A DNA stretch of 64,000 nucleotides, taken from positions 352,001 through 416,000 of IMG/VR virus record IMGVR_UViG_3300028840_006907; one strand, written 5' to 3'. Under the pieces are notes generated by a model. The model made no database searches and was not told where the DNA came from. It was given only the letters and a program-made list of their open reading frames with translations. Position 1 is the stretch's first letter. Every line of letters begins with the position of its first letter. Shown piece after piece: positions 4,009-57,431 of the stretch. Made by a program: the position numbers and the translations under genes. The DNA is from a virus.

Positions 4009-6234
4009 ATGTCTTACATGTTTCGATTGACTGTTGATAGTAGCAAAATAATAGGAACTGATAAAACAGATTTTCCTGTTTTATTTAATGAAAATTGTTC
4101 GAATATACCATCTTCTTTTTGGTCTAATATCACTGATGTAACAGATGGATTAGATGTTCGTTTTTATGATAGTACATCAAAATCAATTGAATATTCAAGA
4201 GAAGTTGTATCAGTTGATGCTACTGGTGAAACTATTGAATCATGGGTACAAATACCTTCTTTAAGTGTTAGTGCAGATACTGATCTTTATTGTGAAGTTG
4301 GAGGTGGTGATCGAACAAATGATACTGATATATGGACTGATTTAGGGGCACTTGGAATTTATCATATGGAAAACACTGCTAGTTCTGTTGATAATGGAAA
4401 AGATGCAACAAATAGTGATGCCACTTCCATAACTGGAAGAATAGGAAGATGTTACGATTTTGACGGTACAAGTAATTATATGGTAATGGATAATTATACC
4501 TTTTTAACTTCTAATCCTTACTATGTTTCTGCCTGGATTAATATGGATAACACTAAAGTAACTGATCCAAGTTGGGAGGATCAATTCGCTACCATATTTA
4601 ATAGATTAGAGAAGTGTAATGAATCTGTATCAGGAAGAGGATCATGCTCATTTGATTTTGGTGTTGATAGAGATGCTAAAGTAGGCTTTTTTGTTGGAGA
4701 TAATTTAACTAATGTATGTTCTAATGCAGGTTATCATCAAGATAGGTATACCACAGATAGCACTATTAATATGAATACATGGTATCATGTTGGTGTCTGG
4801 ATTGAAGATATTTCACAAACAACACCTAACCGTATTGTGAAATTTTATATAGATGGTCAATTGGTCTCTTCTACAGAGAATATTAGTGCCGCTGTTGACT
4901 ATTCGAATACTCATAGACCAGGTGAACAAACTCGAATTGGTAGTGGATATAGAATAGGGGGAGCACACTATCAAAATTTTAATGGTCGAATAGATGAATT
5001 AAGAATATTTAATGGTTCAGATTTTGATTCTAGTTGGATTGAGACAAGTTATAATACTCAAAGTGATCCAGCTTCATTTCTTTCTGGTAGTACCCTTCCA
5101 TTTCAATTTAATGTGAATGTCATATCAGATTATGTCCCTGGTTCAGATAAAACGAATTTTCCAGTAATGTTTACTCAAGATTGTAGCAATGTACCCTCCG
5201 AGTTATGGGATCATGTTTCGGATACGACAAATGGATTAGATATTAGATTTTATAGTGATTCTGGAAAGAGTGTTGAATATGATCGTGAAATTGTTCTTTA
5301 TGATCGGACTGGTCAAAAAGTAGAAGCTTATATAAAAGTACCTACATTAAATGCTTCTTCAAATACAACTTTTGTATGTGAAATAGGGGATGCTACAAAA
5401 GCTAATGATCAAATTTGGGCCGATTCTAGCGCTAGAGGTATATACCATCTTCAAAAGAGTTTAATGGATTATTCTCCAAGAGGACTGGATGGTACAAATA
5501 ATGGTTCTTTAGACTCAACAGGAAAAATAAATGACGCTTATTCATTTAATGATAGCCATGTCCAAATTTATGAGAGTACTGCTTATAATGATACTGTAGC
5601 AATAAGTGCATGGATAAATCTTAATTCTTATCCGCCAAATAATTCTTTAACAGGTTCTCCGAACTATGGCCGTGCAAGTATTTACAATACGGCAGTTATC
5701 TGTTCAACCACTTATAGAGGTTGGATTCCCATGAGTTTTAATATTACACCAACTGGTGAACTTGATTTTTGGGTTAGGACAAGTGTTAGTTGTGGTGGTG
5801 GAGCAACTACATGGGGCTATCGAACGGATAGTACACATATCAGTCTTTATAATTGGCATCATGTCATGGCTGTTATAAATAATTATACAGATGGTGCAAC
5901 AAGATCTCTGACATTTTATGTAGATGGTCAATCGGTAGCTGCTACAAAAGTTTATACTGCAGAATTTGCCCCGGTATACGCTGGTGGTATTCAAACAAGA
6001 ATTGGGTCCCAGTATAAAACTTCAGGTGTTAATGAGTGGCGAATAGATGGTATTATTGATGAATTGCGGATTCATGATGGTTGGGAGCCTCCTGATACTG
6101 ATTGGATAGAGACTGATTATAATAATCAAAATGATCCGAATACGTTTATTATTTGCGGGGATGTTCCAACTCCTCCTTCTACTTCTGTACCTGTAATGCG
6201 AAGAAGACAAAAAGTGAACAGTAGTGGTTTTTAA
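4009..6234 (+). CDS. Fibre/adhesin-like protein with two tandem DUF2341-like + LamG/ConA-like jelly-roll units
   Basis: N-terminal MFRLTVD...TDFPVLFNE...DVRFYDS...SVEYSREVV...WVQIPSL motif repeated at aa ~372 (TNFPVMFTQ...DIRFYSD...VEYDREIV). LamG-type motifs FNGRIDELRIFNG and IDGIIDELRIHDG. Confidence 0.8.
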   Translation: MSYMFRLTVDSSKIIGTDKTDFPVLFNENCSNIPSSFWSNITDVTDGLDVRFYDSTSKSIEYSREVVSVDATGETIESWVQIPSLSVSADTDLYCEVGGGDRTNDTDIWTDLGALGIYHMENTASSVDNGKDATNSDATSITGRIGRCYDFDGTSNYMVMDNYTFLTSNPYYVSAWINMDNTKVTDPSWEDQFATIFNRLEKCNESVSGRGSCSFDFGVDRDAKVGFFVGDNLTNVCSNAGYHQDRYTTDSTINMNTWYHVGVWIEDISQTTPNRIVKFYIDGQLVSSTENISAAVDYSNTHRPGEQTRIGSGYRIGGAHYQNFNGRIDELRIFNGSDFDSSWIETSYNTQSDPASFLSGSTLPFQFNVNVISDYVPGSDKTNFPVMFTQDCSNVPSELWDHVSDTTNGLDIRFYSDSGKSVEYDREIVLYDRTGQKVEAYIKVPTLNASSNTTFVCEIGDATKANDQIWADSSARGIYHLQKSLMDYSPRGLDGTNNGSLDSTGKINDAYSFNDSHVQIYESTAYNDTVAISAWINLNSYPPNNSLTGSPNYGRASIYNTAVICSTTYRGWIPMSFNITPTGELDFWVRTSVSCGGGATTWGYRTDSTHISLYNWHHVMAVINNYTDGATRSLTFYVDGQSVAATKVYTAEFAPVYAGGIQTRIGSQYKTSGVNEWRIDGIIDELRIHDGWEPPDTDWIETDYNNQNDPNTFIICGDVPTPPSTSVPVMRRRQKVNSSGF

Positions 6235-6344: not shown

Positions 6345-6400
6345 GTTATGGCCATGAAAAAAGAATCAAATGGCTTTTATATAATTAAGGAGCTGATACT

Positions 6401-9400
6401 ATGCCTGAAAGAGTCCTAAGAAAATTTGGTGTGGCAGCATCAGTTGATTTTACCCTATTCGAAACAGATGGAATTAACTTTAAAACTGATGCAACGCATG
6501 CCTCCGGTGACACAAAAATAAGAAAAGACACGAGTGCTGAAGTAAATACAACAAATGGATTTACAGATCAAACTACATCATATGCAATAGCATTTACCTC
6601 TGCTGAACTGTCTGCTAAGAGAATATTTGTTGGAATTGTTGATCAAGGTACAAAAACTTGGCTCGATGATTATTTAATGATTGAGACTTACGGACATCCT
6701 CAAGCAATGCACCCCTTTGATCTTGGTGCTGATTTAACTGATTATAATGAGACCTGGAAATTTAAACAAATCGATATCCAGAATGATTCAGGATCTGCAT
6801 TTAGAGCACATTCAACGGGTAGTAGTGGCCATGGTATCGATGCCTCTGGATATGATTTAGGTCACGGTATATATGCCAAAGGTGGTAATACGGATGGTGT
6901 TGGAATTTTTGCTAAAGGTGGTGAAACCGGGCATGGCTTTTATGGAGAAGGAGGTGCTGATTATGGAGATGGTATTCATGGTGAGGCTGTTGGTATCGGT
7001 ACAGGATCTCGTAAGGGTATAGTAGGTATCGGAGAAGGTGGAAACGCTGGGATTTATGCTGAAGGTGGTAGTACTGGTCATGGGTTTAGTTGTGAGGGTG
7101 GTACCGGTGGTGCTGGTATATCTTGTCTTGGAGGTACAAATGGCCATGGTTTTCTGACTTCAGGTACTGGTACTGGAGAAGGTATTTATGCTGTTGGAGA
7201 TATAGGGATTTTTGCTCAAGGTAATGGAAATCCAGGTCATGGTATGAGCCTATTTGGAGCTTCTAATGGCCATGGATTACAGATCTCTGGATCTGGTTCT
7301 AATTTTAATGGAATCAATGTAGTATCTGCAGTGGGTGTAGGTATTGAAGTAAATGCTGGTACAAATCAAAATGCTATTGAGATTTATGGTAATGGTACCG
7401 GAAACGGTGTTAATATAGTTGGTGGTGGTACATCAGGTTCAGCTATGAATCTTACTGCAACGTCTGGTTATGCTATAGATGCTTCAGGAGGTGGAACTTT
7501 TGCTGCTGTTCATCTACAAGGTGGTACAGGAAATCCTGGTTTAAAAGTTCTCGGAGATGGTACAGGTGAAGGTCTCTATGCTGAAGGAGGAGCAACAGCT
7601 AATGGCATTATTGCTAAAGCGGGTTCTACCTCTGGAACAGGTCTTGTTTGTCAATCCCCTACTGCTGGAGATGGTGTAGCAATGTATGGAAAGAGTACTG
7701 GCAAAGGTCTTAGAATTACTGCTGATCAAGAAGCAGTGGCAATTTCTGCCGGTACCGGTATTGGAATTAATGTTATAGCTGGTACTCAAGGTATCAGTTT
7801 AACGGGTCTTGCAAATGAAGGATTAAAGATATTAGGTGCAACACATGGAATTAGTACAGCATCATTTGGAACTGGACATGGCATAGATGCTTCTGGTGGT
7901 GGTGCTAATGCAGCGGTTCTTCTAACAGGTGGAACAGGTCAGGCTGGTTTGAAATTGGTAGGTACGGGCACAGTTGGGCTGGATACGGCTGAAATCGGAA
8001 CGCCTCCAGCTATCTTTGATGGTACTGCAAGTCCAAGCATATATGCGATGCTTACGGCAATGTCTGATGCAAGTGGTGGTTCTGATTTCACTGCTAGTAT
8101 CGATAGTTTAGTTGCTATTTCTAGTCAGGTTGGAGGAATGTCCACAGATGTAAATGTAGTCTCTATTGATGGTCAGGCTACAAGTGGTAACAATGCAACT
8201 CTTAATTTGAAACAATTAAATATCGTTAATAATTCAGGATCAGCCATTGTCGCTCACTCAACTGGTTCTGATGGTCATGGTTTGGATGCTTCAGGTAATA
8301 ACAATGGTAGCGGAATATATGCCTATGGTGGTAATAATAGTAGCGGAAGCGGAATATATGCTAATGGTGGCTTACAGGGAACCGGTTTCCATATAATTTC
8401 TTCAGGAGATAATGCCTTACATATTGAAACTAGCGGATCAGGTTCTAATGGAATCTATGCTAAAGGATTTGGTTCTGGGCATGGCGTGAACTTTGTTGGA
8501 GGAGCTTCATCTGGGTCAATCGGTCTCAGAGCTTCAGGTGAGACAGCGGGTATTTACGCAAGAGGAGAAAATTCTACGAGTGGTGACGGTATAAAAGCTG
8601 AATCTGTAGAACATGGGCATGGTATAAATGCCCTTGGTGGTGAAGGTGGTGCTCCTCCAAGCGGTGACGGTATTCATGCTGAAGCCCGTCATGGAGACCA
8701 TTATGGTATTTACGCGGGTGGTTTTGGCTCTGGAAGTGGCATGTATAGTAAAGGTGGTTTATGGGGTCATGGAGTTGAGTTTAGAGGTGGGGATAATTCT
8801 GGTGCAGGTTTACTTCTTGCAGTAGATGGAACCAATTCTAATGGCTTGAGTATAACGGGTTCTGATAATAGTTCAGGTGTCTATATTGAAGGTGGTACAT
8901 CAGGACATGGAGTTGAAATAATAGGAGGATCAACATCTGGAAGTGGTATCTATACACGTGCTCTAAATAACGGAATGGGTATCTATGCAATAGGTGGTAA
9001 TTCAGCAGGTGATGGTATAAATGCTCAGTCCCCGGTAGCAGGTAACGGAATTTCAGCAACTGGTTCTCTTATTACGGGTAAAGGAATAGTCAGTACGGGT
9101 GGTATAGCAATGCAACTAGTAGGATTGACTGGAAATGCGCTTGATATGACAACAACTACTGGACATGGTATTCAAATAGATGCTCATGGGTCTGGGAAGA
9201 GTGGTATGTATATACAATCTACTTCATCCTATGGTATGACCGTTGTCGGAACCACTGGAGTAAGATTCCAAGGATTATCAGGTCCAGGTATTGATGTTAA
9301 TGCTATAGGTGGTAATGGTTTAAATATCATAAGTACTGACAATGATGGAGTACATATTGAAGCTGGTGGAAGTAATCCTGGTTTCTACAGTCAAGGATCG

Positions 9401-10318
9401 GGATCACAAGCAGGTATGGAAATTCGTGGTGGTAGTTCTGATGGAAGAGGTTTGTTGGTCCAAGGTGGTGGAAATAGTGAAGGTGCTCGGATTTTAGCTG
9501 GTGGCTCTTTCGATGCCGGTCTCCATATTATGGGCGGTGGGCATGGTTTACAAATTGAAGCTCAAGCCGGTAATTATAATGGTGTTAGAATTCAAGGAAA
9601 TGGGACTGCAAGTGGCCTATATGTTGCTGCTCAATTTGCTGGTTCTGGTAGTGGTGTGGAAATCAGAGGAGCTAGCAATACTGGTGGCCATGGTGTCAAT
9701 ATAACAGGTTTTGGAGGACAAGGGTTAATTGCTACAGGTGATTTGGGTGGTATGAATATAACATGTAGTGGATCAACAGGTGACGGTTTTTATGCTGAGG
9801 GTGGAGATCATGGCCACGGAATCCATGCTGTCGGTGGTGCTGGTGCTGCTCCTCCTCCAAGTGGCCACGGTATTCTGGCTGAAGCCGTCCACGGTGATTA
9901 TAATGGTATTTGTGCCATTGGTCATGATTCCAGTGCTGGTATCGCTGCTATTGGTGGATCTACTGGTCATGGTATTGAGGCAATCGGTGGAGATACAACA
10001 GGTGATGGTATTAATGCTTATGCTCAGACAGGTGACGGCGCTGGAATGCGCTTAAGAGGAGTTGGTACAGGCCATGATCTTGATGCTACTGAAGTCCTTG
10101 GTGGTGGAGGAGGAGGTACTCTAAATGCCTTAACTCTGGATACTGTAGTTGATGGCACCACATTAGAATATGCCTTTATGTTAATGATGGCACGAGTAAA
10201 TGGTAAATATCTTGTTAATGATCCAACGGGAGGAGATATAAGATTCTTCAGACGTGATAATACGACAGAATTAACTCGGGTTCATGTGGATACCGCAGGT
10301 AGAACAAGAACATTCTAA
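6401..10318 (+). CDS. Glycine-rich beta-solenoid-like repeat protein (1305 aa)
   Basis: Dozens of ~11-aa G-x-G-(I/L)-x-A-x-G-G-x-T/S repeats, e.g. GHGIDASGYDLGHGIYAKGGNTDGVGIFAKGG; AAGGAG SD 8 nt before the ATG. Confidence 0.8.
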   Translation: MPERVLRKFGVAASVDFTLFETDGINFKTDATHASGDTKIRKDTSAEVNTTNGFTDQTTSYAIAFTSAELSAKRIFVGIVDQGTKTWLDDYLMIETYGHPQAMHPFDLGADLTDYNETWKFKQIDIQNDSGSAFRAHSTGSSGHGIDASGYDLGHGIYAKGGNTDGVGIFAKGGETGHGFYGEGGADYGDGIHGEAVGIGTGSRKGIVGIGEGGNAGIYAEGGSTGHGFSCEGGTGGAGISCLGGTNGHGFLTSGTGTGEGIYAVGDIGIFAQGNGNPGHGMSLFGASNGHGLQISGSGSNFNGINVVSAVGVGIEVNAGTNQNAIEIYGNGTGNGVNIVGGGTSGSAMNLTATSGYAIDASGGGTFAAVHLQGGTGNPGLKVLGDGTGEGLYAEGGATANGIIAKAGSTSGTGLVCQSPTAGDGVAMYGKSTGKGLRITADQEAVAISAGTGIGINVIAGTQGISLTGLANEGLKILGATHGISTASFGTGHGIDASGGGANAAVLLTGGTGQAGLKLVGTGTVGLDTAEIGTPPAIFDGTASPSIYAMLTAMSDASGGSDFTASIDSLVAISSQVGGMSTDVNVVSIDGQATSGNNATLNLKQLNIVNNSGSAIVAHSTGSDGHGLDASGNNNGSGIYAYGGNNSSGSGIYANGGLQGTGFHIISSGDNALHIETSGSGSNGIYAKGFGSGHGVNFVGGASSGSIGLRASGETAGIYARGENSTSGDGIKAESVEHGHGINALGGEGGAPPSGDGIHAEARHGDHYGIYAGGFGSGSGMYSKGGLWGHGVEFRGGDNSGAGLLLAVDGTNSNGLSITGSDNSSGVYIEGGTSGHGVEIIGGSTSGSGIYTRALNNGMGIYAIGGNSAGDGINAQSPVAGNGISATGSLITGKGIVSTGGIAMQLVGLTGNALDMTTTTGHGIQIDAHGSGKSGMYIQSTSSYGMTVVGTTGVRFQGLSGPGIDVNAIGGNGLNIISTDNDGVHIEAGGSNPGFYSQGSGSQAGMEIRGGSSDGRGLLVQGGGNSEGARILAGGSFDAGLHIMGGGHGLQIEAQAGNYNGVRIQGNGTASGLYVAAQFAGSGSGVEIRGASNTGGHGVNITGFGGQGLIATGDLGGMNITCSGSTGDGFYAEGGDHGHGIHAVGGAGAAPPPSGHGILAEAVHGDYNGICAIGHDSSAGIAAIGGSTGHGIEAIGGDTTGDGINAYAQTGDGAGMRLRGVGTGHDLDATEVLGGGGGGTLNALTLDTVVDGTTLEYAFMLMMARVNGKYLVNDPTGGDIRFFRRDNTTELTRVHVDTAGRTRTF

Positions 10319-10322
10319 AATT

Positions 10323-10357
10323 ATGGGGTAAGGAAACTTGCCCCATATAACTGTTTT
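10323..10357 (+). terminator. Intrinsic terminator (10-bp stem, GAAA tetraloop)
   Basis: ATGGGGTAAG-GAAA-CTTGCCCCAT with one G-U pair, then a T5 run at 10353-10357. Confidence 0.5.
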
Positions 10358-10382: not shown

Positions 10383-12431
10383 ATGGCAGCATTTATGTTC
10401 AGACTTTGTGTACCTTACACACAAGTTCCAGGTGCAAATAAAACTAATTTCCCAGTACTTTTTAATGAGAGTATATCTGCAATTCCTGCCGGATTTTGGC
10501 CTAATATTTCTGATTCTTGTGCTTTAGATGTCCGGTTTTATTCAGATCCATTAAAAACTGTTGAATATAAAAGAACGATTGAAGAATATACTCCTTCAAC
10601 TTCTATTCGGGCATGGGTACAAGTTCCTACTTTATATGGGTCTGATAGTAGCACTAATAATAATATCTTTTGTGAAGTAGGTTCTGGTACTACAGCAAGT
10701 GATAATTCTATCTGGACAGATTTAGAAGCACAAAATATTCAGCATTTTGAAGATGATGTTTTAGATGATTCAACTAATGCAAATAATGGAACTTTAGTAA
10801 ATAGCCCTACTTATACTACAGGGAAACTTGGTAGAGCTTTAGAATTTGATAAAGATTCTACTCAATATGTAGTCTTAGATAATAATATCATGTTTAATGA
10901 TGATATTGTTGCGGAAGCTTGGGTTTATTTAAATTCTTATCCAGTCCATGTCCCAAATCCTAATTTTGAATATGCCACAATTGCCTCAAGAGGTACATAT
11001 TGCGTTAATTGGTATAGGGGTAGATCTCAATTTATCTTTGCAATAGATTCAACTGGACATCCATTTTTTCAATTAAATTATTCTACAGGATGTACTGCAG
11101 GATCTCGAACTAATTCTTATACTTCAGATGCAATAGTCCCTTTATCAACATGGACTCATGTAGCGGTTGTCTCTCAAGATAATACTTCGTTTTCAAGACA
11201 AGTAGATTTTTATGTTAATGGAGAAAAAAGAACTGATGCATCAAATGTTTTAATAGCTTTGACTTTTGATACTGTTACTAATCATCAAACACAAATTGGT
11301 GCAACATTTGAAGAGTGGGGTGGAGGAGGTCCTAGCCAAAGATGGCCTTTTGATGGTCGTATTGATGAATTGAGGATATATAGACAGAATCCATTGTTAT
11401 TTGATGATGGATGGATGCAAGCCACTTATAATTCTCAAAATGATCCTGATACTTTTTTTACTTGTGGTACTACACCCTTTTATGTTTTCTCAGATAGAAT
11501 TGCACAAGATGGTTTTAATCCTCCTGCTGATTCTACTTGGTTAGCTACATTTGGTGAATGGAATATCGGGGAGGAACCTCCATATATAATTACAGATCCT
11601 CGATATTGGGTTGCTCTATCGGATTCCACATGGAATGATACCGCTAATTGGTCGTATTTTTCTGGAGGTCCAGGAGGAGCACCAGTTCCTATTTCCAATA
11701 ATACTGTTGTATTTGATAATGGTGGAATAGGTAGATGTGATATAGATACTTCGGTTGATGTAAATGGATTTTATTGTTCAGGTTATGGAAACACTATCAG
11801 TCAAAATGGTTTTCCCATTTCAGTGGATTCATGTGGGGCTCTGTTTTGGTCTGGAGTTTTTGAAGGTAGTGGAGATGATATTAGGATAGCAGGAAATCTT
11901 TATATAGGAGGAGCTGCTAATTTTACCAGTACTGACCAAACTCTTTCTTGCGACTCTACATTTACTTATTATCCTACTGCATTTTTCGAACATAATAGTG
12001 GTATTATATCTCTTGATAATAGTGGTTGTATGATCGAAGCTCCTAGTATGAGAGCATCTACTTTACAATTTAATGCGGACCAAGCCCGTGTCAGTCAGAG
12101 CATGGATGTGAACGATCTATTGGTTTTAAATAGTGGAAGTGCCCGTCATCTTGGTGTGGGTGCCTCTATTAATTTAAAAGGAGATGCATCTTGTAGATCT
12201 GGTTATAATCAGTGGAATAATTTTAATAATTTAACGATATATTTAGATGGGACAGAACAACAGCAAATTAAAAATGAAATAGGTTGTATAGTTCCAACAC
12301 TTTATGTAAATAAAAATGTCACTGAACAAGTTGTATGTGATGGTGGTAGCCCTTTGAGAGTAAAAGGGGATTTTTGGGTTCTTGATGGGACCTTTAATAT
12401 GAATGGATTAAATGTACAAGTAGGGCTTTAA
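10383..12431 (+). CDS. DUF2341-like + LamG-like fibre/adhesin protein (682 aa)
   Basis: N-terminus MAAFMFRLCV...NFPVLFNES...DVRFYSD...VEYKRTIEE...WVQVPTL paralogous to 4009 and 12801; LamG motif FDGRIDELRIYRQ. Confidence 0.8.
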   Translation: MAAFMFRLCVPYTQVPGANKTNFPVLFNESISAIPAGFWPNISDSCALDVRFYSDPLKTVEYKRTIEEYTPSTSIRAWVQVPTLYGSDSSTNNNIFCEVGSGTTASDNSIWTDLEAQNIQHFEDDVLDDSTNANNGTLVNSPTYTTGKLGRALEFDKDSTQYVVLDNNIMFNDDIVAEAWVYLNSYPVHVPNPNFEYATIASRGTYCVNWYRGRSQFIFAIDSTGHPFFQLNYSTGCTAGSRTNSYTSDAIVPLSTWTHVAVVSQDNTSFSRQVDFYVNGEKRTDASNVLIALTFDTVTNHQTQIGATFEEWGGGGPSQRWPFDGRIDELRIYRQNPLLFDDGWMQATYNSQNDPDTFFTCGTTPFYVFSDRIAQDGFNPPADSTWLATFGEWNIGEEPPYIITDPRYWVALSDSTWNDTANWSYFSGGPGGAPVPISNNTVVFDNGGIGRCDIDTSVDVNGFYCSGYGNTISQNGFPISVDSCGALFWSGVFEGSGDDIRIAGNLYIGGAANFTSTDQTLSCDSTFTYYPTAFFEHNSGIISLDNSGCMIEAPSMRASTLQFNADQARVSQSMDVNDLLVLNSGSARHLGVGASINLKGDASCRSGYNQWNNFNNLTIYLDGTEQQQIKNEIGCIVPTLYVNKNVTEQVVCDGGSPLRVKGDFWVLDGTFNMNGLNVQVGL

Positions 12432-12800: not shown

Positions 12801-15800
12801 ATGGCTTTTATGTTTAGACTAACAGTTGACAAGGATATGGTCGCCGGAACGGATAAGAGTAATTATCCTTTACTTGTTGATGACCGAGTAGCTAATTTTC
12901 CATCTTCATTCTTTTCGAATGTTGTTGATGCTAGTGGTTTAGATATTAGATATTATTCTGATGCAGCAAAATCAGTAGAGTATAGTAGGGAAATAGTAAC
13001 AGTTGATACTACTGCTCAAACATTTGAATCTTGGGTTCAAATACCATTATTATCTGCTTCCAGTGATTCTACTTTTTATTGTGAAGTGGGGGATGCCACA
13101 TCAGCTAATGATTTTACTATTTGGGATTCTCAAAACCATTATCGTGTATTTCATTTACAAGATGCTTCTGATTCAGGAACTTTACACGATCCTTTAATTG
13201 TAAATAATGCCTCATCTGTATCGAGTAAAATACAGAAAGGTTATGATTTCAGTGGAACCACTCATCATTTACAATGTACTACTAATCCTGATTTTCAGCA
13301 AACATACCCATTTTATATTTCTTCTTGGGTAAACTTAAGATCTCTTATAGTATCGCCTACATTTATTGATAGTGTCTCGTGTATATTTAGTCGTGAAGTA
13401 ATTTGTCAGACGACACTTAGGAATTGGATAGCTTTCAATTTTGGTATTGATAGTTCTCAAAGACTGTCTTGGATGTGTGGAGAAAATCTTTCTGGATGTG
13501 TATTGCCCGGACAACATACTGATTGGTATACTTCTGATAATACGGTTTCATTAAATCAATGGATCCATGTAGGAGCATATATTGAAAATTTATATACAGC
13601 TACTCCAAATCGTGTCGTAAAGTTATTTGTTGATGGGAGTCAGATACCTTCTACAGAAGGTAATCTTGGAGATATTGTAAATTATCACAATACACATAAT
13701 CTAGCTCAATTATCAAGGATTGGTGCTGGGTACCGGCAAACAGGTATACCAATACAAAATTTTGATGGTATTATTGATGAAGTAAGAATAGTCAGTGATG
13801 CAACTATATATTCTAATGGTGACTGGCAACAAACGGAATTTAATAATCAAAATGATCCTTCAACTTATATCTTGGCACCTGATACTACGGGGGTCTATTT
13901 TATTAATGCCGCTGGATCAAGTACTTATCCCTACGATACTGAAGCAAAAGGAGCTGTTAATTTAAAAGATTTACTTGATAGTGTTTCTCTTAATGATGGT
14001 GATATAATAGAAGTCTCTGATGCAGGTGGTACAATAGATGACTCTGCTGCTAGTCCGGGTAATATAAATGCCTCAGTAACAATTAGGTCTTATTCTGGAA
14101 ATACAGGTAATCCAACTTTTAAAGTTCGTGATAGTAGTTATTTATTTTTATTTAATGGTGTGACAGTAGATGGCGTTTATATTCAAAACATAGATATGTA
14201 TAAAGCCGGAACTGGTTCTACCTCTATCGCTTTCATTTGGTTTTTAACTTGTGATATATCAAATTTTGAAGTAACTAATTGTAACTTCTCAATAACCGGA
14301 ACTGCTGGCTCGGTAGCTGCTGTGGAATTAGACACTTCTGATCTTCATGGAACTTCCAGGTTTGAATATAATACAATAACTAAGATGAGTGCTGGACTAT
14401 ATATCAGAGACAATTGTTCTGTCTTTGAAGATTTTAGTGCTTCTTATAATACGTATAATGATATTAGTTATGGTAGTATTAAAGCTTTTCTTCTTGTCGG
14501 AACTCTAAGTACTATACAAAGAATTGTTGTTGATAATAATTATGGTACTGATAGTGGACTAACTTTTGTCTTTATGGCAGGTACTGCAGGTCAAACCTGT
14601 GATGACATTAAAATAAGAAATAATGTTATTAACTCAATGGATTCATTTCATTTTAATACCATAAATTTAGCTGCTCCTACTTTGACGAATTCAAGTGTTG
14701 TTAATAATTCATTATTTCAAGCTGGGGGTATATTTGTAAATAATGCTGATGCTAATCTAGTTGTAGCTAATAATACTCTAAGTCGAGGCTCGGAATCTTG
14801 GTTCATTTATGCTATTCAAGTTACTGCTGCAGCAGGAGCTTCTTTCAATAACAATAATATTTATGGTTATACAAACCCATATTTTGTAAGTGGTGGCATT
14901 ACATATGGTACAAGTAATACACAATTGGATCCTCTTTATGATAGCACTTCTAATCTCCATCTCCAAGCTGGAAGTCCTTGTATAAAAACCGGTGCAAGTT
15001 ACGGAGTCTATTCTTCAGTACCTACAACAGGTTATGATGGTACTGCCCGACAGAGTCTTGTCTGTGATATTGGTGCTTATGAAACTACTCCTAATACTTA
15101 TTTTGTAAATAATGGTGGATCTGCTACATATCCTTTTGATACTGAAATAAAAGGTGCTGTTAATTTCAATCAATTACTTGGTGTTATAACTTTATCAAAT
15201 TGGGATACAGTTGAAGTAAGTAATGCTGGTGGTACAATTGATGATTCGACTGCTTTTCCTAATTTTATTAATGCTGCGGTAACAATTAGATCATATGCTA
15301 ATAATACAGCCAAACCTGTTATTCATGTAAAGAATACTGGAGCTTCAAGAGAGAGCCAGTTTCGTTGGGACAACTATCCTACTGTTTATTCATCAGATGC
15401 TGTAACAATACAAAATTTACAATTATATAAATCAGGTCCAAGTCCAAGTCAGCCCTTTATAAACGCCCGAACATGGGATTTCGATACTTTAGAAGTTACT
15501 GGATGTGATTTTTCAGTGACTGATCCAACTGGTGCTGTAAGTGCTGTACAAGGAGTTTATCTTGATGATTGTAATATCAATCAGAGTTTTACTTATCAGG
15601 ATAGTGACTCTTCCGGTGTAGACGGTGCCCTTTGGATTACTGATACTACTACTAAAACTATACAGGGTGTAAATATATCAGATCATATTTTTGAAGGGAA
15701 ATATTTATTTGTTTATATACAACCCGATACTCTTTCTGATGCTACTATTGAAACTAATGATGTAGGAGGATCAATTTTATGTGCTGGAACTTCTATAAAT

Positions 15801-18800
15801 AGTAGTGTAGCTATTAGGAATAATGTCGTTCGAAGTGTTTCAAGTTTGGCACCTTTAGGAATTTATACCACTGGAGCTGGTCAGAGTGTTGTAAATAATA
15901 CGATCAGAAATATCCCAGTTGGTGGTTATGGTATAAGATATCTTAGTGGTGGTGCAAATAGTTATGTTCTCAATAATATCGTTTATAGAGATGATACTGT
16001 GGGAGCTGCCACTGGAATCGAAACTTCATTTACAGCCGGTGTCATTGATTATAACAATGTTTATAATTTTGGCACACCTTATGTTTCTGGAGCAGTCACT
16101 CCAGGACCAAATAGTATTCAAGTTGATCCAATTTTTATTAGTTCTACAAATCTCCGTTTACAAAGTAATAGTCCTTGTATAAGAACTGGTATAGGTAGTG
16201 GGACTTATTCTGTAGTTCCATCGGTTGGATATGATGGTAATCCAAGATCTTCTGCTACTGTTGATATGGGAGCTTATGAATCTCTTTTACCCTCTGGACT
16301 TTTTCCTCCTCCCCTACCTATTTACGGTAATTATGAAACACCTGTTTCCTTAGGAAGTGGATCAGGTTATTACCACAAGCCTGCTGATTATTTAGGGCAG
16401 GAAACTAAAGGTGGTGGAGCTATTAAATTAGTGGCAAATTCAGGTAATGTTAGTATTAATGGTAGAATCAGAATGGATGGTCAGGATGGGACTATGACCG
16501 GGGGTGCCGCTGGAGGAAGTGTCTGGCTTATTGGTTGGAGAATAGATGGGACTGGAACAATAAGCGCAGATGGTGGAAGGACTCAATTGGTAAGTAATTC
16601 CGGTGGTGGAAGTGGTGGCTATATTTCAATGTGGCATCATAAAACTATAACTTATGATGGAACTGCAACTGTTGATGGTTATGATGGTGCCGGAGATGGA
16701 AAGATATTTATAAAAGAAATTGAGCCCATTTTAGAAGAGCCTTTTACAGGTGATATTTTAAATATAAAATGGTGGGATACTACGAATTCTGTAACCATAG
16801 ATAATGAACTCACTTTTGATTCACCAAATGATAATTATAATTTCCCGGAGACTTTATCGGAATTTAATATTTCAGGAAAAGAAATAAATGTTGAAGCAGA
16901 TTATACTTCACTCACTCCAGACTCATCTCAGAATACGGCAGCATTTCTATTGTGGGTCGATGATTTAAATTGGGCAGGAGTGGCACGGAAATTTAATGGC
17001 TTTTTTGGAATATCCTCTATAAATGGGGCTGTCTCTGTTTCAGGAGTGCCTTTTGATAATACGAATGTAACTTTCCGTATTCTTAAAAATGATAGTACTT
17101 TTACATATCAATTTTGGGATGCCACATCAACTCCTCAAACTATTTATATGGATTATCTGCCAGAATTGGCAAATAGTGTATTTAAAGTGAAGTTAACAGT
17201 TGATAAACCTCCACTGGGTGATTCACTACGTACAAGATATCAAAGATTAACTGCATTTGATATTTCAAATCAATATCTTTATATGGATGGGATTCCTATA
17301 GATCAATCAGCCGTTGCTATGAATTCTATTACTGGTACATCTCATTACTATGGAGAAGATTTTTATGTAGATAATTATCTTTTGAAATGGGATTATACAG
17401 CTTCTAATTTTGCTTCCCTTGCAGCGTGGGGTGATGTTGTCAGATATCAATATGAATATAATGCTCCGCCAACAAATGAGGTTACTGTAGCTTTCGATAA
17501 TGTAAGAGTATATGAAGGAGTTTTAAGTAATGCAGAAACAACTGAACCGGTTATCTATGTTGATCCTAATTATGGCTCAGATACCTGTTCTGGAAGACAG
17601 CTTGATCCTTTGAAAAATTTATTTGTAGCCACGGCTTGGGCTAAAAAAGGAAGTACAGTTGTATTGTATGATGGAACTCATAATCCTACTAAAGTATCCC
17701 GCAAAGACCTGACCATACGAGGAGCTGAAGGAAGTATTGCTGGAATTACTTCGAAAAATGTCCAGGATTCAACAGGTTCTAATTGGGAAAGAGATGCTCT
17801 TTCATTTTATGGCAGTCAAGGTATCGTAGAAAATGTGCATATTTTTGATAGTAGTAGAGGTATTGTAGTTGAGAATGGTAATTATGAAATATCTCGAAAC
17901 ACAATTACAGATACAAGTAATGCTGTAACCTTCGTCAAATGTGATCCTAGAATTATCCGAAATAAAATTTTGGATGTAGATTTTGGTCTTGATTTTACAT
18001 CTTGTCGAATTGCTCCTTATGCTTATGCTAATATTATATCAAATGCAGATGTAGCAGTTCGAGCTAATTTAACAACTGATATGACTTTTTCATGTAATAC
18101 TTTTGACAATGATCAGACCCATTTCTTGATTGATTCAAGTTCATCAATTATTATGTCGTCAAATAATTTGACATATAGTGTTATGCCAGTCATTGTTTCA
18201 ACAGATTCATGGTTTGGTTCTTATTATAATAACTTTTATCCTAATACGACACAATATAATAGGACCCCAGATGATGCTACTAACAATATTGTTGCAAATC
18301 CTTTATACTATGACCGAATTGGAAAGGATTTCCATTTAAATACTGGATCTCCTAATATAGGAACAGGGTCACTTACATATAATGATTATCTCTATGATTT
18401 TGATGGGGCTGATATTCGTAGTGCTGAAATAGGAGCATACCAATATATTGACAGTACTAAAATAACAAGTGACTATTATGTATCAAGTCATGGTAATGAT
18501 TATTGGAATTTCGGAAGACAGACTGACCCATTCCGGACTTTAGATAGAGCTATGGTAGATGCTGATTCTACTGTCCGTATTGATGGTGGTCATTATGATT
18601 CATTCTATCTTAATCTGAGATCACAGGATATACATTTAAATCAACTCTATATTTATTTAGGACCGGAACAACAATTTGTCTCATATATCACTTTAGATGC
18701 AGAAGATGCTTCAAATAAATATGTTCCTTTGCCAAGTTTTGTTGCACCAGATGATGCTTCCCATGTAGCTATGAATATCATAGGAAGTTCGGCACAAATT

Positions 18801-20126
18801 CAGGGAGAGGATTACATAGTAGAATGGGGTCATCTTGTATGGGATACTTATGATCTTGATGGTTTCCTTTCAGCGGGAGATACTTTAAGAGTAATTTTCT
18901 ACGGTCCTTTACAAAAGAAAGCATTAAATAATTTTGTTCTTCATGGGCATTATAGTAACTATAACCAGAATCAGGCAATTTTTGTATCACCGAGTGGAAG
19001 TGATAGCACTGATCTGGGAGGGGACGGGACCAATACAGGTGGAACTGGATCAAGAGATTTACCATACAGAACTATTAGTATGGCTCTGTCTCAATCAAAT
19101 TCGGGTGATAACATTGTAGCTATGGCTGGAGAGTATCCAGTATTTGATGGCCTTCAGGATCGGGTAATCGTTCCTGCCTTTGACCGGACCGCTGCAGTCA
19201 ATAGTTCAAAAAGGGTTTATGAGGATTTCTTTGCACAAAAAGATTTTAGAGCTTATGGTACAACTGAATATGATCCAACACCATGGGAATTTGATTATAC
19301 AGGAAATTCAGAAGTATTCGCAGGAGGAGGATTCTTAAACTTTACCTATGACGGATCGAACAGTGCTACAGCCACATCGACTTTTCAATTTACCAGTGAT
19401 TTTGAAGTAAGGGCTAATTTAAGAAATGCTGTGGATCCAATAACTCTTAGAGTAACTTCACCTGATACAACAGCCTTTATTAGTTATAACGAATCACAGT
19501 TTACTGCTGGTGTTATAAATACTGATAGTACAGTTATATGTAGTGCTGTGGCACATAGTGGTGATACTACTGAATCAGATGTTTTTGTTGTAGAATATAT
19601 TCCTGTAACATCGGATCATACTCGAAATAAATATGCCGAATTATCATATATTCCAGAGGGATCTGATTGTACCAATTTAGCTCTTAATGTTGTTGGGGGT
19701 AATACGCAGGATTTCGGTGAAGATTTCTATGTCCAAGATTCTAAAATTAAATGGGATGGTATGACAATGGATGGTGAAATAGAACCAGGTGAAGTTTTAA
19801 GAGCTGTTTACTTGGATCGACCTTTATCATTGGCTGTTACTGCTTCCATCACTCTTGAGAATGGTCTCTTTACTCTAAAGGCTTATGATGGTACTTGGAA
19901 TACTTTAATGAATAGAAGTTTGGTAGGAGATTATACCGGTAACTGGAATGTATCATTTACAATGGATACACCTAACGAAGAATTTAGTCATAATTGCATT
20001 TATGGTAAAGGATATGCGTCTCAATTCTTGGCAATAGCTGATTCTTTTGAGAATATTCAAGGTTTAGATAAGCCTTTGGCTGTCTCAACTGAGAGACGTA
20101 ATTTAGTTATATATGAAGAGAGGTAA
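12801..20126 (+). CDS. Giant fibre protein (2441 aa): DUF2341/LamG-like N-terminus plus three right-handed beta-helix-type modules
   Basis: N-terminus MAFMFRLTVD...NYPLLVDD...DIRYYSD...VEYSREIV; LamG motif FDGIIDEVRIVSD. Three modules end in the cap motif L(H/R)L..(G/N)SP.I..G..........D..G..R......(D/E)(I/M)GAY(E/Q), the first two being a large internal duplication. Confidence 0.8.
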   Translation: MAFMFRLTVDKDMVAGTDKSNYPLLVDDRVANFPSSFFSNVVDASGLDIRYYSDAAKSVEYSREIVTVDTTAQTFESWVQIPLLSASSDSTFYCEVGDATSANDFTIWDSQNHYRVFHLQDASDSGTLHDPLIVNNASSVSSKIQKGYDFSGTTHHLQCTTNPDFQQTYPFYISSWVNLRSLIVSPTFIDSVSCIFSREVICQTTLRNWIAFNFGIDSSQRLSWMCGENLSGCVLPGQHTDWYTSDNTVSLNQWIHVGAYIENLYTATPNRVVKLFVDGSQIPSTEGNLGDIVNYHNTHNLAQLSRIGAGYRQTGIPIQNFDGIIDEVRIVSDATIYSNGDWQQTEFNNQNDPSTYILAPDTTGVYFINAAGSSTYPYDTEAKGAVNLKDLLDSVSLNDGDIIEVSDAGGTIDDSAASPGNINASVTIRSYSGNTGNPTFKVRDSSYLFLFNGVTVDGVYIQNIDMYKAGTGSTSIAFIWFLTCDISNFEVTNCNFSITGTAGSVAAVELDTSDLHGTSRFEYNTITKMSAGLYIRDNCSVFEDFSASYNTYNDISYGSIKAFLLVGTLSTIQRIVVDNNYGTDSGLTFVFMAGTAGQTCDDIKIRNNVINSMDSFHFNTINLAAPTLTNSSVVNNSLFQAGGIFVNNADANLVVANNTLSRGSESWFIYAIQVTAAAGASFNNNNIYGYTNPYFVSGGITYGTSNTQLDPLYDSTSNLHLQAGSPCIKTGASYGVYSSVPTTGYDGTARQSLVCDIGAYETTPNTYFVNNGGSATYPFDTEIKGAVNFNQLLGVITLSNWDTVEVSNAGGTIDDSTAFPNFINAAVTIRSYANNTAKPVIHVKNTGASRESQFRWDNYPTVYSSDAVTIQNLQLYKSGPSPSQPFINARTWDFDTLEVTGCDFSVTDPTGAVSAVQGVYLDDCNINQSFTYQDSDSSGVDGALWITDTTTKTIQGVNISDHIFEGKYLFVYIQPDTLSDATIETNDVGGSILCAGTSINSSVAIRNNVVRSVSSLAPLGIYTTGAGQSVVNNTIRNIPVGGYGIRYLSGGANSYVLNNIVYRDDTVGAATGIETSFTAGVIDYNNVYNFGTPYVSGAVTPGPNSIQVDPIFISSTNLRLQSNSPCIRTGIGSGTYSVVPSVGYDGNPRSSATVDMGAYESLLPSGLFPPPLPIYGNYETPVSLGSGSGYYHKPADYLGQETKGGGAIKLVANSGNVSINGRIRMDGQDGTMTGGAAGGSVWLIGWRIDGTGTISADGGRTQLVSNSGGGSGGYISMWHHKTITYDGTATVDGYDGAGDGKIFIKEIEPILEEPFTGDILNIKWWDTTNSVTIDNELTFDSPNDNYNFPETLSEFNISGKEINVEADYTSLTPDSSQNTAAFLLWVDDLNWAGVARKFNGFFGISSINGAVSVSGVPFDNTNVTFRILKNDSTFTYQFWDATSTPQTIYMDYLPELANSVFKVKLTVDKPPLGDSLRTRYQRLTAFDISNQYLYMDGIPIDQSAVAMNSITGTSHYYGEDFYVDNYLLKWDYTASNFASLAAWGDVVRYQYEYNAPPTNEVTVAFDNVRVYEGVLSNAETTEPVIYVDPNYGSDTCSGRQLDPLKNLFVATAWAKKGSTVVLYDGTHNPTKVSRKDLTIRGAEGSIAGITSKNVQDSTGSNWERDALSFYGSQGIVENVHIFDSSRGIVVENGNYEISRNTITDTSNAVTFVKCDPRIIRNKILDVDFGLDFTSCRIAPYAYANIISNADVAVRANLTTDMTFSCNTFDNDQTHFLIDSSSSIIMSSNNLTYSVMPVIVSTDSWFGSYYNNFYPNTTQYNRTPDDATNNIVANPLYYDRIGKDFHLNTGSPNIGTGSLTYNDYLYDFDGADIRSAEIGAYQYIDSTKITSDYYVSSHGNDYWNFGRQTDPFRTLDRAMVDADSTVRIDGGHYDSFYLNLRSQDIHLNQLYIYLGPEQQFVSYITLDAEDASNKYVPLPSFVAPDDASHVAMNIIGSSAQIQGEDYIVEWGHLVWDTYDLDGFLSAGDTLRVIFYGPLQKKALNNFVLHGHYSNYNQNQAIFVSPSGSDSTDLGGDGTNTGGTGSRDLPYRTISMALSQSNSGDNIVAMAGEYPVFDGLQDRVIVPAFDRTAAVNSSKRVYEDFFAQKDFRAYGTTEYDPTPWEFDYTGNSEVFAGGGFLNFTYDGSNSATATSTFQFTSDFEVRANLRNAVDPITLRVTSPDTTAFISYNESQFTAGVINTDSTVICSAVAHSGDTTESDVFVVEYIPVTSDHTRNKYAELSYIPEGSDCTNLALNVVGGNTQDFGEDFYVQDSKIKWDGMTMDGEIEPGEVLRAVYLDRPLSLAVTASITLENGLFTLKAYDGTWNTLMNRSLVGDYTGNWNVSFTMDTPNEEFSHNCIYGKGYASQFLAIADSFENIQGLDKPLAVSTERRNLVIYEER

Positions 20127-20128
20127 TA

Positions 20129-21496
20129 GTGCCAGTATATCATTCAGGAAATTTAAGAGATACTGATAGGCCAGAATGGAATTATCCATTAAGACCTCAG
20201 GTTGCAGATTTAACAAAGCCTTTGGCTCCCCGAAATCTTATGGTAACAAGTCCTTATGATGTTGGAAAATTGGATATTCGTTGGGATAATCCTAATATTC
20301 TTCCACAAAATAGTGGATTAAATATTGTAGGATGTAATGTATACCGTTCTATTGATAGTCCTTTCAGATTTGTAAAAATTAATGAGACACCCGTTACCGT
20401 ACTTTTTTATCGTGATGAGACAAAAGAAACTTTGGTAACAAATGAAAATGCTACTCCTACAATACGTCATGATTTAGTTCCAGAAGAGAAATGGTCTGTA
20501 TGGGCTCAAAGAAGACCTATAGTAAGACCTGATTCAAATGGTGTTACAACTGATAGAGTTCAAGATATTTTACTTGAAATAGATAATGGTGATGGTACAT
20601 TTCTTGAAGTACCAGCTTTTTCTGTAAATGGAAAAACAGGTGAAATTGTACTTATAAGAACTCCTGTTTATAATTACGAAGTTAGCCAAATAGTTCCTCC
20701 ACGTTTACCATATCCACCTAATGGTCGCGTCAGAATTACATATAGATATTTAGAACATTCGGTAATTACTGTATTAAATCAAAGAATTTATTATAAAGTG
20801 ACAACAGTAGCAGTAGATCCGGATGATCCTGCTTCTTTTATTGAAACTCCGTTGGATGAGGTTTCATCACGTACTGCTTTTGATGTAGAATCGATTGATT
20901 ATATTTGGAGAGAAGGAATTTTACGTAATCGTTGGTTATTAGAGCAGAGCGGTGAAAGAGTGAAGATATTTATACGTAGATGGATGGGAGAAAAGTGTCC
21001 ATCTCATCAGACAAATTATGGACAAAGCTATAATGATTGTACTGATTGTTATGGTACTAATATTGTAGGTGGGTATGATGGTCCTTATGATGTGATAATA
21101 GCACCACCAGAGTCAGAGAAGATGATAGAATTAGCGGACATGGGACTTCATATTACTTACGATTGGGCAACTTGGATGGGTCCCTATCCGCTTCTAAATG
21201 AACGTGATGTTATTGTTCGTCAGAATAATGAGCGTTATGTTGTAGGTCCTGTGACTCCTCAGGGATCACGAGGATGTATTTATCAGCATCATTTTACTAT
21301 GAGCTATATTGACCAAGGAGATATTAGATATCAGATACCGATTGAAGGTGGGGAAACTAGTGTGCCTTCTTCATATGATCCTTATCGTGAAACTGCTCCG
21401 ACTGATGCAAGTCCAGCAATAAACGATAAGCCTGAAATTCCTGATGACAAGATCATTAGAGGCCGTACAGTAACCTTCGAAAATATTACCTATTAA
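20129..21496 (+). CDS. Hypothetical protein (455 aa), possible fibre-associated
   Basis: GTG start 3 nt after the stop of the 2441-aa gene with AGAGG upstream; no recognisable motifs. Confidence 0.6.
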   Translation: MPVYHSGNLRDTDRPEWNYPLRPQVADLTKPLAPRNLMVTSPYDVGKLDIRWDNPNILPQNSGLNIVGCNVYRSIDSPFRFVKINETPVTVLFYRDETKETLVTNENATPTIRHDLVPEEKWSVWAQRRPIVRPDSNGVTTDRVQDILLEIDNGDGTFLEVPAFSVNGKTGEIVLIRTPVYNYEVSQIVPPRLPYPPNGRVRITYRYLEHSVITVLNQRIYYKVTTVAVDPDDPASFIETPLDEVSSRTAFDVESIDYIWREGILRNRWLLEQSGERVKIFIRRWMGEKCPSHQTNYGQSYNDCTDCYGTNIVGGYDGPYDVIIAPPESEKMIELADMGLHITYDWATWMGPYPLLNERDVIVRQNNERYVVGPVTPQGSRGCIYQHHFTMSYIDQGDIRYQIPIEGGETSVPSSYDPYRETAPTDASPAINDKPEIPDDKIIRGRTVTFENITY

Positions 21497-57200: not shown

Positions 57201-57431
57201 CCTCTTGATGTTTCGGGAGGTGCAGGACGTGCCTATATCCAGAGTGATGGAAAAATAATCGTAAGTACTATTGATGGTCAGTTACCTGATACGAAAAATT
57301 ATGAAGTAGCATATTATGTGGAAGGGGAAACTGGTTCTGAAGATATTAATGTAGCAGCAGTTGAGTCTTTAAAAATTGGGACTCTAACAATTGCTTATGA
57401 TACACCACGAGAACAACTTCCTTCGTTATAA
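54258..57431 (+). CDS. Large baseplate/fibre structural protein (1057 aa)
   Basis: ORF track; position immediately before the propeller-containing fibre. Confidence 0.7.
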   Translation: MAIPAPEILLPTGGMDYATDIATQTLSGTTSADTQEIQINGSVHGVSYTAGETIWSWTGTLTLGSNVINIIAIEKVTSLPSPATTITITLIPPEDEVITVSSPTGVQTLRYQDKIEIKNVQNPEPNTIGYNYYVSTQSGGIDGVYAKINTDYITEYTSYEDKATLINTVTDTTGNIRVTVTTEQITREYYYSVFFDQERYTELVEAELLPAVSFNQNTPFFFVVTAIIYDPVLGQVTESANSIELQSSPVTITTGIRTLPARTQNDIILTFSQDLLLSNTGTDTKPGTVVRDMMDPISEEMARVYVIQDFLARSLSVSSLLDFDDADGDGESDAVEDSIPKKALQLALMLTDPDDVQAVIDAQFDKLASNADTTRRSATYAVGEVTFFVTEAPIRDMVVNEGAIVSTLGDLDSGIQAQSYRTLATKILDYETRERFYNSTTGRYEMSLDVEALNVGEEGNTDSYTVKVVSSGADSNFQVENPNPISFGEDIESNYNLATRIMLAFFADTGTEGGYAKIAASVSGVRRTRIEKAGDPLMIRDYDPIREKHVGGKVDVYIQGSRSRQVTDQIAFSFESIVSSQGAQSEEQFLVINAVAFQFKTTNPRVTSHTPIFEVSRVYNATRAQEYDISGYQIIGDGNTVDLDETKAQNAAIGLAATDVIKVDYKFRSSDTFVLQNQPVNDIVSIVGQLSGTLTSDNWDLVTLEDPLAEGRSTIAQDSVRIKFANNLPLTGFQTITDEVHVMILGKNEPLDFLGADPTSIVVKNLAKTVTYVLNVDYRIDPGTDTEATEIIMIESGSISNGEQVLINYVAIENFIITYTTNELLETVQDELDEYKHACADAIAKQAIENGVDFAFTVVPKSNVVDFNTLTSQITTSIANFISQLDIGVSLTQSDVDNQIRKVDDVDYVVLPFTRMVKSDGSQIVRDDIGQVQFEVYNDGVTRSYITSATVLSYNTIDKGGDENKFRGVFENTVALILQDDPLDVSGGAGRAYIQSDGKIIVSTIDGQLPDTKNYEVAYYVEGETGSEDINVAAVESLKIGTLTIAYDTPREQLPSL

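Follow-up and report, generated by a model that had tools for sequence, protein, structure and literature searches.

The subject of this analysis is a single gene in a 64,000-nucleotide stretch of viral DNA (the window; positions 352,001 to 416,000 of IMG/VR record IMGVR_UViG_3300028840_006907). The gene is an open reading frame (ORF) at 6401..10318 on the plus strand, which starts with ATG, encodes 1305 amino acids (aa) and has the coordinates given for it in the original prediction. We propose, with a probability of roughly 60%, that this gene encodes a fibre on the virion surface (on the tail or on another appendage) of a large contractile-tailed virus, and that the shaft of this fibre is most likely a homotrimeric beta-helix. 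What we rate as new is the shaft, i.e. a phage fibre shaft made of an undescribed glycine-rich unit of 11-12 residues with dedicated start and stop motifs; the role of virion fibre is itself conventional, and the fold is unproven.

The repeat unit and the modular plan of the fibre protein

Glycine accounts for 23.7% of the residues of the fibre protein, and the autocorrelation of both glycine and hydrophobic residues along the chain was highest at a lag of 11, with further maxima at 22-23 and ~33-34. When compared with 1000 shuffles of the sequence, the maximum at lag 11 gave z = 6.6 for glycine and z = 6.1 for the hydrophobic residues. The motif G-x-G-[ILVMFY] occurs 51 times in the protein, most often at spacings of 11 residues (15 cases) or 12 residues (8 cases). 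Across 26 proteins of the family, the start-to-start spacing of the units peaked at 11/12, 22/23, 34, 45, 56-57, 68, 79 and 90 residues, and these peaks correspond to a mean period of ~11.3 residues. This period and the lag-11 maxima bear out the glycine-rich repeat of ~11 residues that had originally been predicted. The autocorrelation of glycine at lag 3 was negative (-0.145), i.e. there is no period of 3; a collagen-like triple helix was rejected on this ground, in agreement with the earlier claim that the repeat is not G-X-Y collagen.

We built a consensus from 461 clean units, 269 of which have 11 residues and 192 of which have 12. It reads G1-[D/H/S]2-G3-[I/L/M]4-x5-[A/I/V]6-x7-G8-G9-[G/A]10-T11(-S12), so that positions 1 and 3 are always glycine and positions 8 and 9 strongly favour it, while positions 4 and 6 hold alternating hydrophobic residues. 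The fibre protein contains ~84 such units in total, ~31 in a first array and ~53 in a second.

The two arrays are set within an ordered series of modules: an immunoglobulin-like (Ig-like) N-terminal domain (NTD), an initiator motif, array 1, a terminator motif, a linker of ~50 residues, a second initiator, array 2 and a C-terminal domain (CTD), all on the plus strand. The NTD (aa 1-100; 6401..6700) was modelled by AlphaFold2 (AF2) as a beta-sandwich of seven strands, with a predicted local distance difference test score (pLDDT) of ~72-88, and it is presumed to be the virion anchor. It is followed by a connector and initiator motif 1 (aa 101-153, ETWKFKQIDIQNDSGSAFRAHSTGSSGHGIDASG; 6701..6859), which has a pLDDT of 73-86 over aa 111-160, and then by array 1 (aa 143-490; 6827..7870), in which pLDDT is 68-86 over the canonical units (aa 143-250 and 370-430) and below 50 over the degenerate ones. 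Array 1 is closed by a terminator motif (aa 491-530, GHGIDASGGGANAAVLLTGGTGQAGLKLVGTGTVGLDTA; 7871..7990) that reads GHGIDASGGGANAAVLLTGGTGQAGLKLVG…. A second copy of the terminator lies inside array 1 as an internal terminator-like block (aa 355-390, GYAIDASGGGTFAAVHLQGGTGNPGLKVLG; 7463..7570; DNA repeat D8, 70% identical over 105 nt), and the copies at aa 355-390 and aa 491-526 both align to the single terminator of the relative P0001.

The non-repeat linker that follows (aa 531-582, EIGTPPAIFDGTASPSIYAMLTAMSDASGGSDF...DSLVAISS; 7991..8146) is, together with initiator 2, 83-91% identical to P0001; its pLDDT is below 50, and it is a possible hinge or knob between the arrays. Initiator motif 2 (aa 583-635, DVNVVSIDGQATSGNNATLNLKQLNIVNNSGSAIVAHSTGSDGHGLDASG; 8147..8305) is more canonical than initiator 1 and opens array 2 (aa 625-1225; 8273..10075), in which pLDDT ranges from 40 to 78. 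Two copies of a segmental duplication were found by piecewise BLAST, copy A at aa 724-835 (8570..8905) and copy B at aa 1123-1239 (9767..10117), which are 44% identical (E 2e-26); copy B aligns non-collinearly with aa 411-490 of P0001. The CTD (aa 1226-1305; 10076..10315) consists of a Gly6 spacer and a body of ~60 residues that ends in GRTRTF, for which AF2 predicted, with low confidence, a helix (aa 1255-1266) and a beta-hairpin (strands at aa 1278-1283 and 1290-1296). Searches of Pfam and the PDB with the CTD found no relative.

The original prediction had also drawn attention to large blocks recurring near aa 125 and aa 605 and had described them as a higher-order duplication. We located these blocks at aa 122 and aa 604, where 21/29 residues are identical. 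Smith-Waterman alignment of aa 116-180 with aa 598-663 scored 191, compared with 36.6 ± 7 for shuffled sequences (z = 22) and with a best score of 90 for any other array window. By the same measure, aa 724-835 versus aa 1123-1239 gave z = 17 and aa 355-390 versus aa 491-526 gave z = 13.6. All three block pairs (z = 14-22) are therefore similar far above the level of the generic repeat. BLAST of the whole protein against itself returned the identity match alone, and the internal repeats were found when BLAST was run piecewise.

The two quoted blocks are copies of the initiator, whose consensus is IDGQxTSGNNATLNLKQLNIVNxxGxAxxAxSTGGNGHG. The initiator is the most conserved element family-wide; it opens a glycine-rich array in 21/25 homologues and is present in 1-6 copies per protein. 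The "higher-order duplication" thus reflects a conserved, family-wide plan of initiator and array and is more than a duplication within one gene. Judged from their DNA, the repeat copies in the gene are old: the direct repeats are merely 60-81% identical, and Tandem Repeats Finder reported no tandem array in the DNA of the gene.

Relatives and variation in repeat number

The relative P0001 (810 aa) is collinear with the target at both ends, with NTD and initiator ~80% identical and the CTD 96-98% identical. Between these ends the target has ~300 extra residues in array 1 and ~200 in array 2, and aa 1117-1199 of the target align non-collinearly with P0001, a mark of the segmental duplication. 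Across the loci from IMG/VR and from metagenome-assembled genomes (MAGs), the number of G-x-G-h units per protein ranged from 1 to 101, so the comparison of repeat number that was suggested with the original prediction did reveal variation. Conserved ends around a shaft of variable repeat number form a fibre-like architecture, which supports the proposed fibre.

The modules are arranged differently in P0002 and P0003 (locus L001, 10001-14113). In these proteins a module of ~125 aa, made up of linker, initiator, ~three glycine-rich units and a stop, is repeated in tandem three or four times. P0002 and P0003 are close homologues and have the look of beads on a string instead of long arrays. Because the ~125-residue module recurs in tandem in this way, it may fold on its own.

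We estimated the size of the family by exhaustive searches with hidden Markov models (HMMs), counting representatives of clusters at 50% identity. A profile of the initiator and first units matched 1663 representatives at E ≤ 1e-3, 931 at E ≤ 1e-10 and 180 at E ≤ 1e-30; an earlier word-indexed search with the module profile had been swamped by glycine-rich words and gave 4 matches. The family members sampled were all "hypothetical" or unnamed, and searches of Pfam, PHROGs and NCBIfam gave no match to the fibre protein. Sequence and profile searches of the PDB with the whole protein, the module, the NTD and the CTD gave no relatives. Among 50,697 phage records (INPHARED), tblastn with the whole protein and with the initiator region found nothing even at E ≤ 1, and megablast with 24 kb of the window found no match. 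Searching IMG/VR with the NTD as a single sequence likewise returned none. The fibre protein belongs to a large family of putative phage fibres that has neither a name nor a solved structure.

The initiator/repeat module was found on 27 IMG/VR viral contigs and on merely 5 MAG contigs among 185,579 species genomes; the small number of MAG contigs suggests that the module belongs mainly to uncultured viruses and not to integrated prophages. The CTD was detected by its HMM in 37/165 family proteins. The NTD profile matched 1540 unnamed proteins, many of them 100-200 aa long, and many proteins of ~180 aa (P0166-P0285) consist of the Ig-like NTD and a C-terminal domain with a helix and a hairpin, without the glycine-rich insert. 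The shallow HMM of the CTD did not match these ~180-aa NTD-only proteins. Alignment of the target CTD with their C-terminal domain by hhalign gave P = 5e-4 and a probability of 30%, in the same register as seen by eye. This pattern of sequence similarity suggests that the glycine-rich modules may have been inserted into a small, widespread virion protein, between its two domains. On three phage contigs (L047, L048 and L049) a few small genes separate the gene for the ~180-aa protein from the large terminase gene downstream of it, and in L048 and L049 the gene for the ~180-aa protein comes after a gene for a protein of ~445 aa.

Fibres determine which hosts can be reached, and their shafts are a major structural gap for uncultivated viruses. 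The present module occurs in 1663 representative clusters without a name, a Pfam or PHROG model or a solved relative. Its sequence follows clear rules, from the start motif through the 11-12-residue unit to the stop motif. A model of the module could label many large "hypothetical" phage proteins as fibres. A fibrous architecture not seen before would probably emerge from the structure of one short member, and the seemingly freely adjustable length makes the shaft a possible scaffold for engineered fibres of chosen length.

Structure models and the fold of the shaft

We modelled the monomer with AF2 in two parts, aa 1-640 (model 1) and aa 560-1305 (model 2), using a shallow alignment of 20 sequences. 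Mean pLDDT was 63 and 59, and the predicted template modelling score (pTM) was 0.37 and 0.33, for models 1 and 2, respectively. In model 1, pLDDT was 73-86 over aa 111-200, 62-78 over aa 201-250 and 75-80 over aa 371-430, and was below 50 in degenerate units and in the linker; in model 2 it was 65-78 over several stretches of the array. Predicted disorder had been named at the outset as an outcome that would count against a solenoid, and here the answer was divided: about a third of the residues (~32-33%) had a pLDDT below 50, yet canonical units reached values of up to 86. Assignment of secondary structure by DSSP found no helix in the arrays of either model and merely isolated strand or bridge marks of one or two residues, and this near-absence of strands held even in array stretches with a pLDDT of 80-86. 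The single-chain beta-roll or beta-solenoid of the original prediction was not confirmed, as the AF2 monomers are almost without a beta-ladder. A chain that is confidently modelled without ladders of its own is what we would expect if the strand partners lay in other subunits. Comparison of model 1 with the PDB by Foldseek gave merely weak Ig-like matches (E 2e-3 and weaker), which we attribute to the NTD, and model 2 gave nothing significant against BFVD. The IgA1 protease, the LKA1 gp49 tailspike and Awp3b were also named in the fold comparison of the models.

In the arrangement that we favour, the Ig-like NTD would dock the fibre onto the particle and the two glycine-rich arrays would form stiff segments of the shaft. 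Each array would begin at a conserved non-glycine initiator, and the first would be closed by the terminator; the linker between the arrays would act as a hinge or a small knob. Positions 4 and 6 of each unit would turn their hydrophobic side chains inwards, and the glycines at positions 1, 3, 8 and 9 would sit at the corners. The shaft would be a homotrimeric and probably intertwined (triple-stranded) beta-helix with one unit per face, and the small, highly conserved CTD would serve either as a nucleus for registration and trimerisation or as a partner-binding tip. Fibre length would be set by the number of units, through segmental duplication and deletion, with both ends fixed. The fibre would attach the particle to the surface of its host, perhaps with the help of the lectin-like LamG proteins encoded beside it.

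By analogy, the protein would work in the manner of fibres with a tail, a shaft and a knob, as known from adenovirus, reovirus and phages, and most probably in that of the triple beta-helices of phages. A short repeat with a kink glycine and alternating inward hydrophobic residues, as is seen in triple-stranded beta-helix fibres, was found here. The protein resembles T4 gp5C, T4 gp12 and the streptococcal phage hyaluronidase HylP in these respects, with inward aliphatic residues in what is here a putative phage virion protein, and the AF2 monomer, without helix and almost without ladder, is also consistent with a phage triple beta-helix. The triple-stranded beta-helix of T4 gp5C has 8 residues per face (VXGXXXXX) and that of gp12 ~6 residues (PMC3004832). 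In contrast to this range of 6-8 residues, the present unit has 11-12 residues and four conserved glycines. Its arrays, of ~31 and ~53 units, are far longer than the helices of gp5C, gp12 and HylP, they have a dedicated initiator and terminator, and they show no detectable sequence similarity to those proteins; the intertwining of three chains is here something we infer. The conserved ends, together with a shaft repeat number that differs between close relatives, are likewise shared with the fibres of adenovirus, reovirus and PRD1, which have a triple beta-spiral shaft. The adenovirus shaft repeat is ~15 residues long and has another pattern. There is no detectable homology to any of these three fibres, and the target CTD, of merely ~60 residues, could register a trimer as in the adenovirus-type plan.

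We weighed the trimeric shaft against three other states of the chain. The most serious of these is a stalk in which each chain forms its own parallel beta-helix, each coil taking up two or three units (22-34 residues), comparable to the helices of tailspikes, pectate lyases or PbH1 proteins or to an enlarged RTX roll. The pattern G-x-G-I-x-[AL] resembles the start of PbH1 repeats; the relative P0008 appears by eye to have a PbH1-like stretch further downstream; and GHG motifs preferentially recur every two units, while the sharp spacing peak at 34 residues corresponds to three units. However, ladders would be expected from such a fold, and the arrays have almost no DSSP strand or bridge marks even where they are confidently modelled. 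Moreover, no match to Pfam Beta_helix, PbH1, NosD or Pectate_lyase was found, the 22-25-residue coil signature of the PbH1 helices of tailspikes and lyases is lacking, and correlations of unit length and residue type between lags varied and gave no consistent super-period of two, three or four units. On the ladder and the Pfam result we did not assign the protein to the PbH1/pectate-lyase-like helices, and we consider a single-chain solenoid unlikely. The RTX calcium-binding beta-roll, whose nonapeptide is GGxGxDxUx, shares with the target a short glycine-rich repeat, one buried hydrophobic residue per unit and an elongated form, but it was rejected because the period here is 11.3 and not 9, the unit has no conserved Asp at the calcium position, there is no HemolysinCabind match and the context is viral. 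A YadA-like head of the trimeric autotransporters (Hep_Hag, a left-handed beta-roll of 14 residues, with repeats of 7 or 14) was rejected on the period, the absence of a Pfam match and, again, the viral context.

A lattice of polyglycine-II (PGII) or polyproline-II helices, as in the glycine-rich receptor-binding domains of S16 gp38 and Pam3 gp24, the glycine-rich domain of ALK and the snow-flea antifreeze protein, would also account for a glycine-rich chain, encoded in a phage fibre context, to which DSSP assigns no helix and hardly any strand. The phage fibre proteins S16 gp38 and Pam3 gp24 use such lattices, i.e. glycine-rich tail-fibre elements without classical secondary structure (PMC9608196), and in L014 and L026 adjacent genes gave weak, sub-cutoff matches to Pfam Gly_rich_2. 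The target itself has no Gly_rich_2 match, however, and its glycines lie at positions 1, 3, 8 and 9 of the unit instead of at every third residue; the Ile/Leu and Ala that are conserved at its positions 4 and 6 are out of keeping with a tightly packed PGII sheet, and there are no GGxGG runs save the Gly6 spacer. The elements of gp38 and gp24 are compact distal tips with 10-12 short motifs of the GGxGG type, whereas the target has ~1000 shaft residues of a regular unit with conserved hydrophobic residues. A PGII domain of the gp38, Pam3 gp24 or ALK type was therefore rejected on period and consensus, and a lattice of this kind is in our view improbable. We give slightly less weight still to a flexible and largely disordered tether that would act as a spacer between folded end domains. 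The residues with low pLDDT, the linker and degenerate repeats among them, the pTM values of 0.33-0.37 and the restriction of regular secondary structure to isolated bridge marks are what such a tether would give; it is at odds with the strict period and register, the fixed hydrophobic residues, the hundreds of diverged units across the 1663 representative clusters, the conserved start and stop motifs, and the pLDDT of 73-86 in canonical units.

With regard to the favoured trimeric shaft, we also considered a bolder version, which is possible but which we would rather doubt than accept. In this version the 11-12-residue unit with its initiator and terminator is a fibrous fold new to the PDB (possibly a wide, intertwined trimeric beta-helix, perhaps with an ion-binding ladder of inward His/Asp at position 2), which tailed viruses of many hosts would have inserted as a length-adjustable cassette into the common ~180-residue virion protein and would use together with an adjacent LamG partner.

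Genomic context and place on the virion

The window is a structural region of a large contractile-tailed virus; its long ORFs are all on the same strand, and it has no tRNAs. The long stalk or fibre of the original prediction is the reading best supported, and it is the genomic context that supports it. P0016 occupies a tail-fibre slot after genes for the sheath, tube, tape measure protein and sheath initiator, and P0033 occupies such a slot after gpV and gpW-like genes and two large baseplate genes; these are two different tail modules of the myovirus type. Further family members lie in other tail regions, and in L025 a gene with a Collar domain is found two genes upstream of the family member.

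Several findings count against a trimeric tail fibre. No experimental or named relative was found in Pfam, PHROGs, NCBIfam, PDB or INPHARED, and the structure models are of modest confidence. A face of 11-12 residues would make a prism wider than any solved triple beta-helix, and it is doubted that Ile and Ala alone could fill so wide a core. The gene lies ~18 kb upstream of the sheath gene and does not adjoin the baseplate genes, the slot after Baseplate_J is taken up by a BNR-repeat protein, and conservation is higher at both termini than in the shaft, an unusual feature for a receptor-binding tip. Relatives also lie beside the portal gene in head modules, so that the word "tail" in tail fibre is not secure.

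The last of these points bears on where a fibre would be attached. It is conceivable, though we lean away from it, that the protein is a fibre of the head, the neck or another appendage (a whisker or decoration) which would serve environmental adhesion or particle stability and not primary receptor binding. Portal-adjacent or head-module relatives were found in L004, L038 and L039; in L038 and L039 the family gene comes one to three genes after the portal-MuF gene, and the gene for the short relative P0088 (337 aa) has the portal on one side and the protease / major head protein on the other. In the window, ThyX and an actin homologue stand between the fibre gene and the tail genes, another protein occupies the slot after Baseplate_J, and with both termini conserved there is no hypervariable tip. 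These arrangements have to be set against the classical tail-fibre slots of P0016 and P0033, the Collar-domain neighbour in L025, and the LamG and PKD proteins near the family genes, which are typical of host-recognition clusters.

A fibre acting in adhesion would have candidate partners next to it, since the gene lies within an upstream cluster of very large proteins with LamG paralogues on both sides. The upstream neighbour (4009..6234, plus strand) is a LamG protein of 741 aa with two tandem DUF2341 + Laminin_G_3 modules, and is a candidate partner or lectin; the downstream neighbour (10383..12431, plus strand) is a Laminin_G_3 protein of 682 aa and a paralogue of the upstream one over the DUF2341 + LamG module. 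The two are 35% identical over ~360 aa, and the upstream protein holds the ~360-aa module twice. A LamG gene is also the immediate upstream neighbour of the family member in L003, L022, L026, L038 and L041, and the LamG protein of L038, which again has DUF2341, is homologous over most of its length to those of the window. The recurring LamG neighbour is a candidate for the second member of a two-gene host-recognition unit.

The fibre gene is preceded by a Shine-Dalgarno sequence, AAGGAG (6388..6393, plus strand), found by inspection 8 nt 5' of the ATG. A box, TTTATATAAT, 5' of the gene was considered as a promoter motif and dropped, as it has 33 matches in the window compared with 27.9 ± 5.5 expected. 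A terminator-like hairpin with an 11-bp stem, a GAAA loop and a T-rich tail (10322..10357, plus strand) starts 4 nt past the stop codon, which hints that the fibre gene ends a transcription unit. Local GC content over the gene is 0.40-0.44 compared with a background of ~0.35, and we attribute this rise to the GGN glycine codons of a protein with ~24% glycine. Nested ORFs of 82-96 aa at 6857-7147 (minus strand), 7541-7789 (minus strand) and 9768-10055 (plus strand, other frame) were judged to be by-products of the GGT-rich coding frame and not genes.

The other genes considered in the window are likewise on the plus strand. The first tail genes are a tail sheath (28157-30958), assigned from a weak C-terminal match to Phage_sheath_1C (E 8e-4, below the Pfam cutoff), and a tape measure (34727-38035). 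They are followed by a gp5-like hub with weak matches (41941-43872) and by Baseplate_J (54258-57431). The BNR / YCF48-like repeat protein directly after Baseplate_J (1358 aa, E 7e-27; 57444-61520) fills the classical tail-fibre/tailspike slot of this virus.

Between the LamG proteins and the sheath, an ORF of 2441 aa (12801-20126) has no Pfam or PHROG match, and an ORF of 455 aa (20129-21496) has a counterpart of the same length at the corresponding position in the contig of P0002. The ThyX (21614-23116) is 500 aa long, contains two Thy1 stretches and has the appearance of a flavin-dependent thymidylate synthase in tandem or fused form. The actin homologue, of 338 aa (25217-26233), matches Pfam Volactin (PF25216) over its full length (E 1.2e-63). 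Volactin was described as the actin homologue of the haloarchaeon Haloferax volcanii; the present gene belongs to a contractile-tailed virus of ~35% GC and sits between the ThyX and sheath genes, and copies 65-75% identical occur on six IMG/VR viral contigs. In the contig of P0002 (L001, GCA_028278125.1), the region upstream of the fibre cluster encodes Tad3 (PF25185), a rhodanese and a protein with a weak sulfotransferase match.

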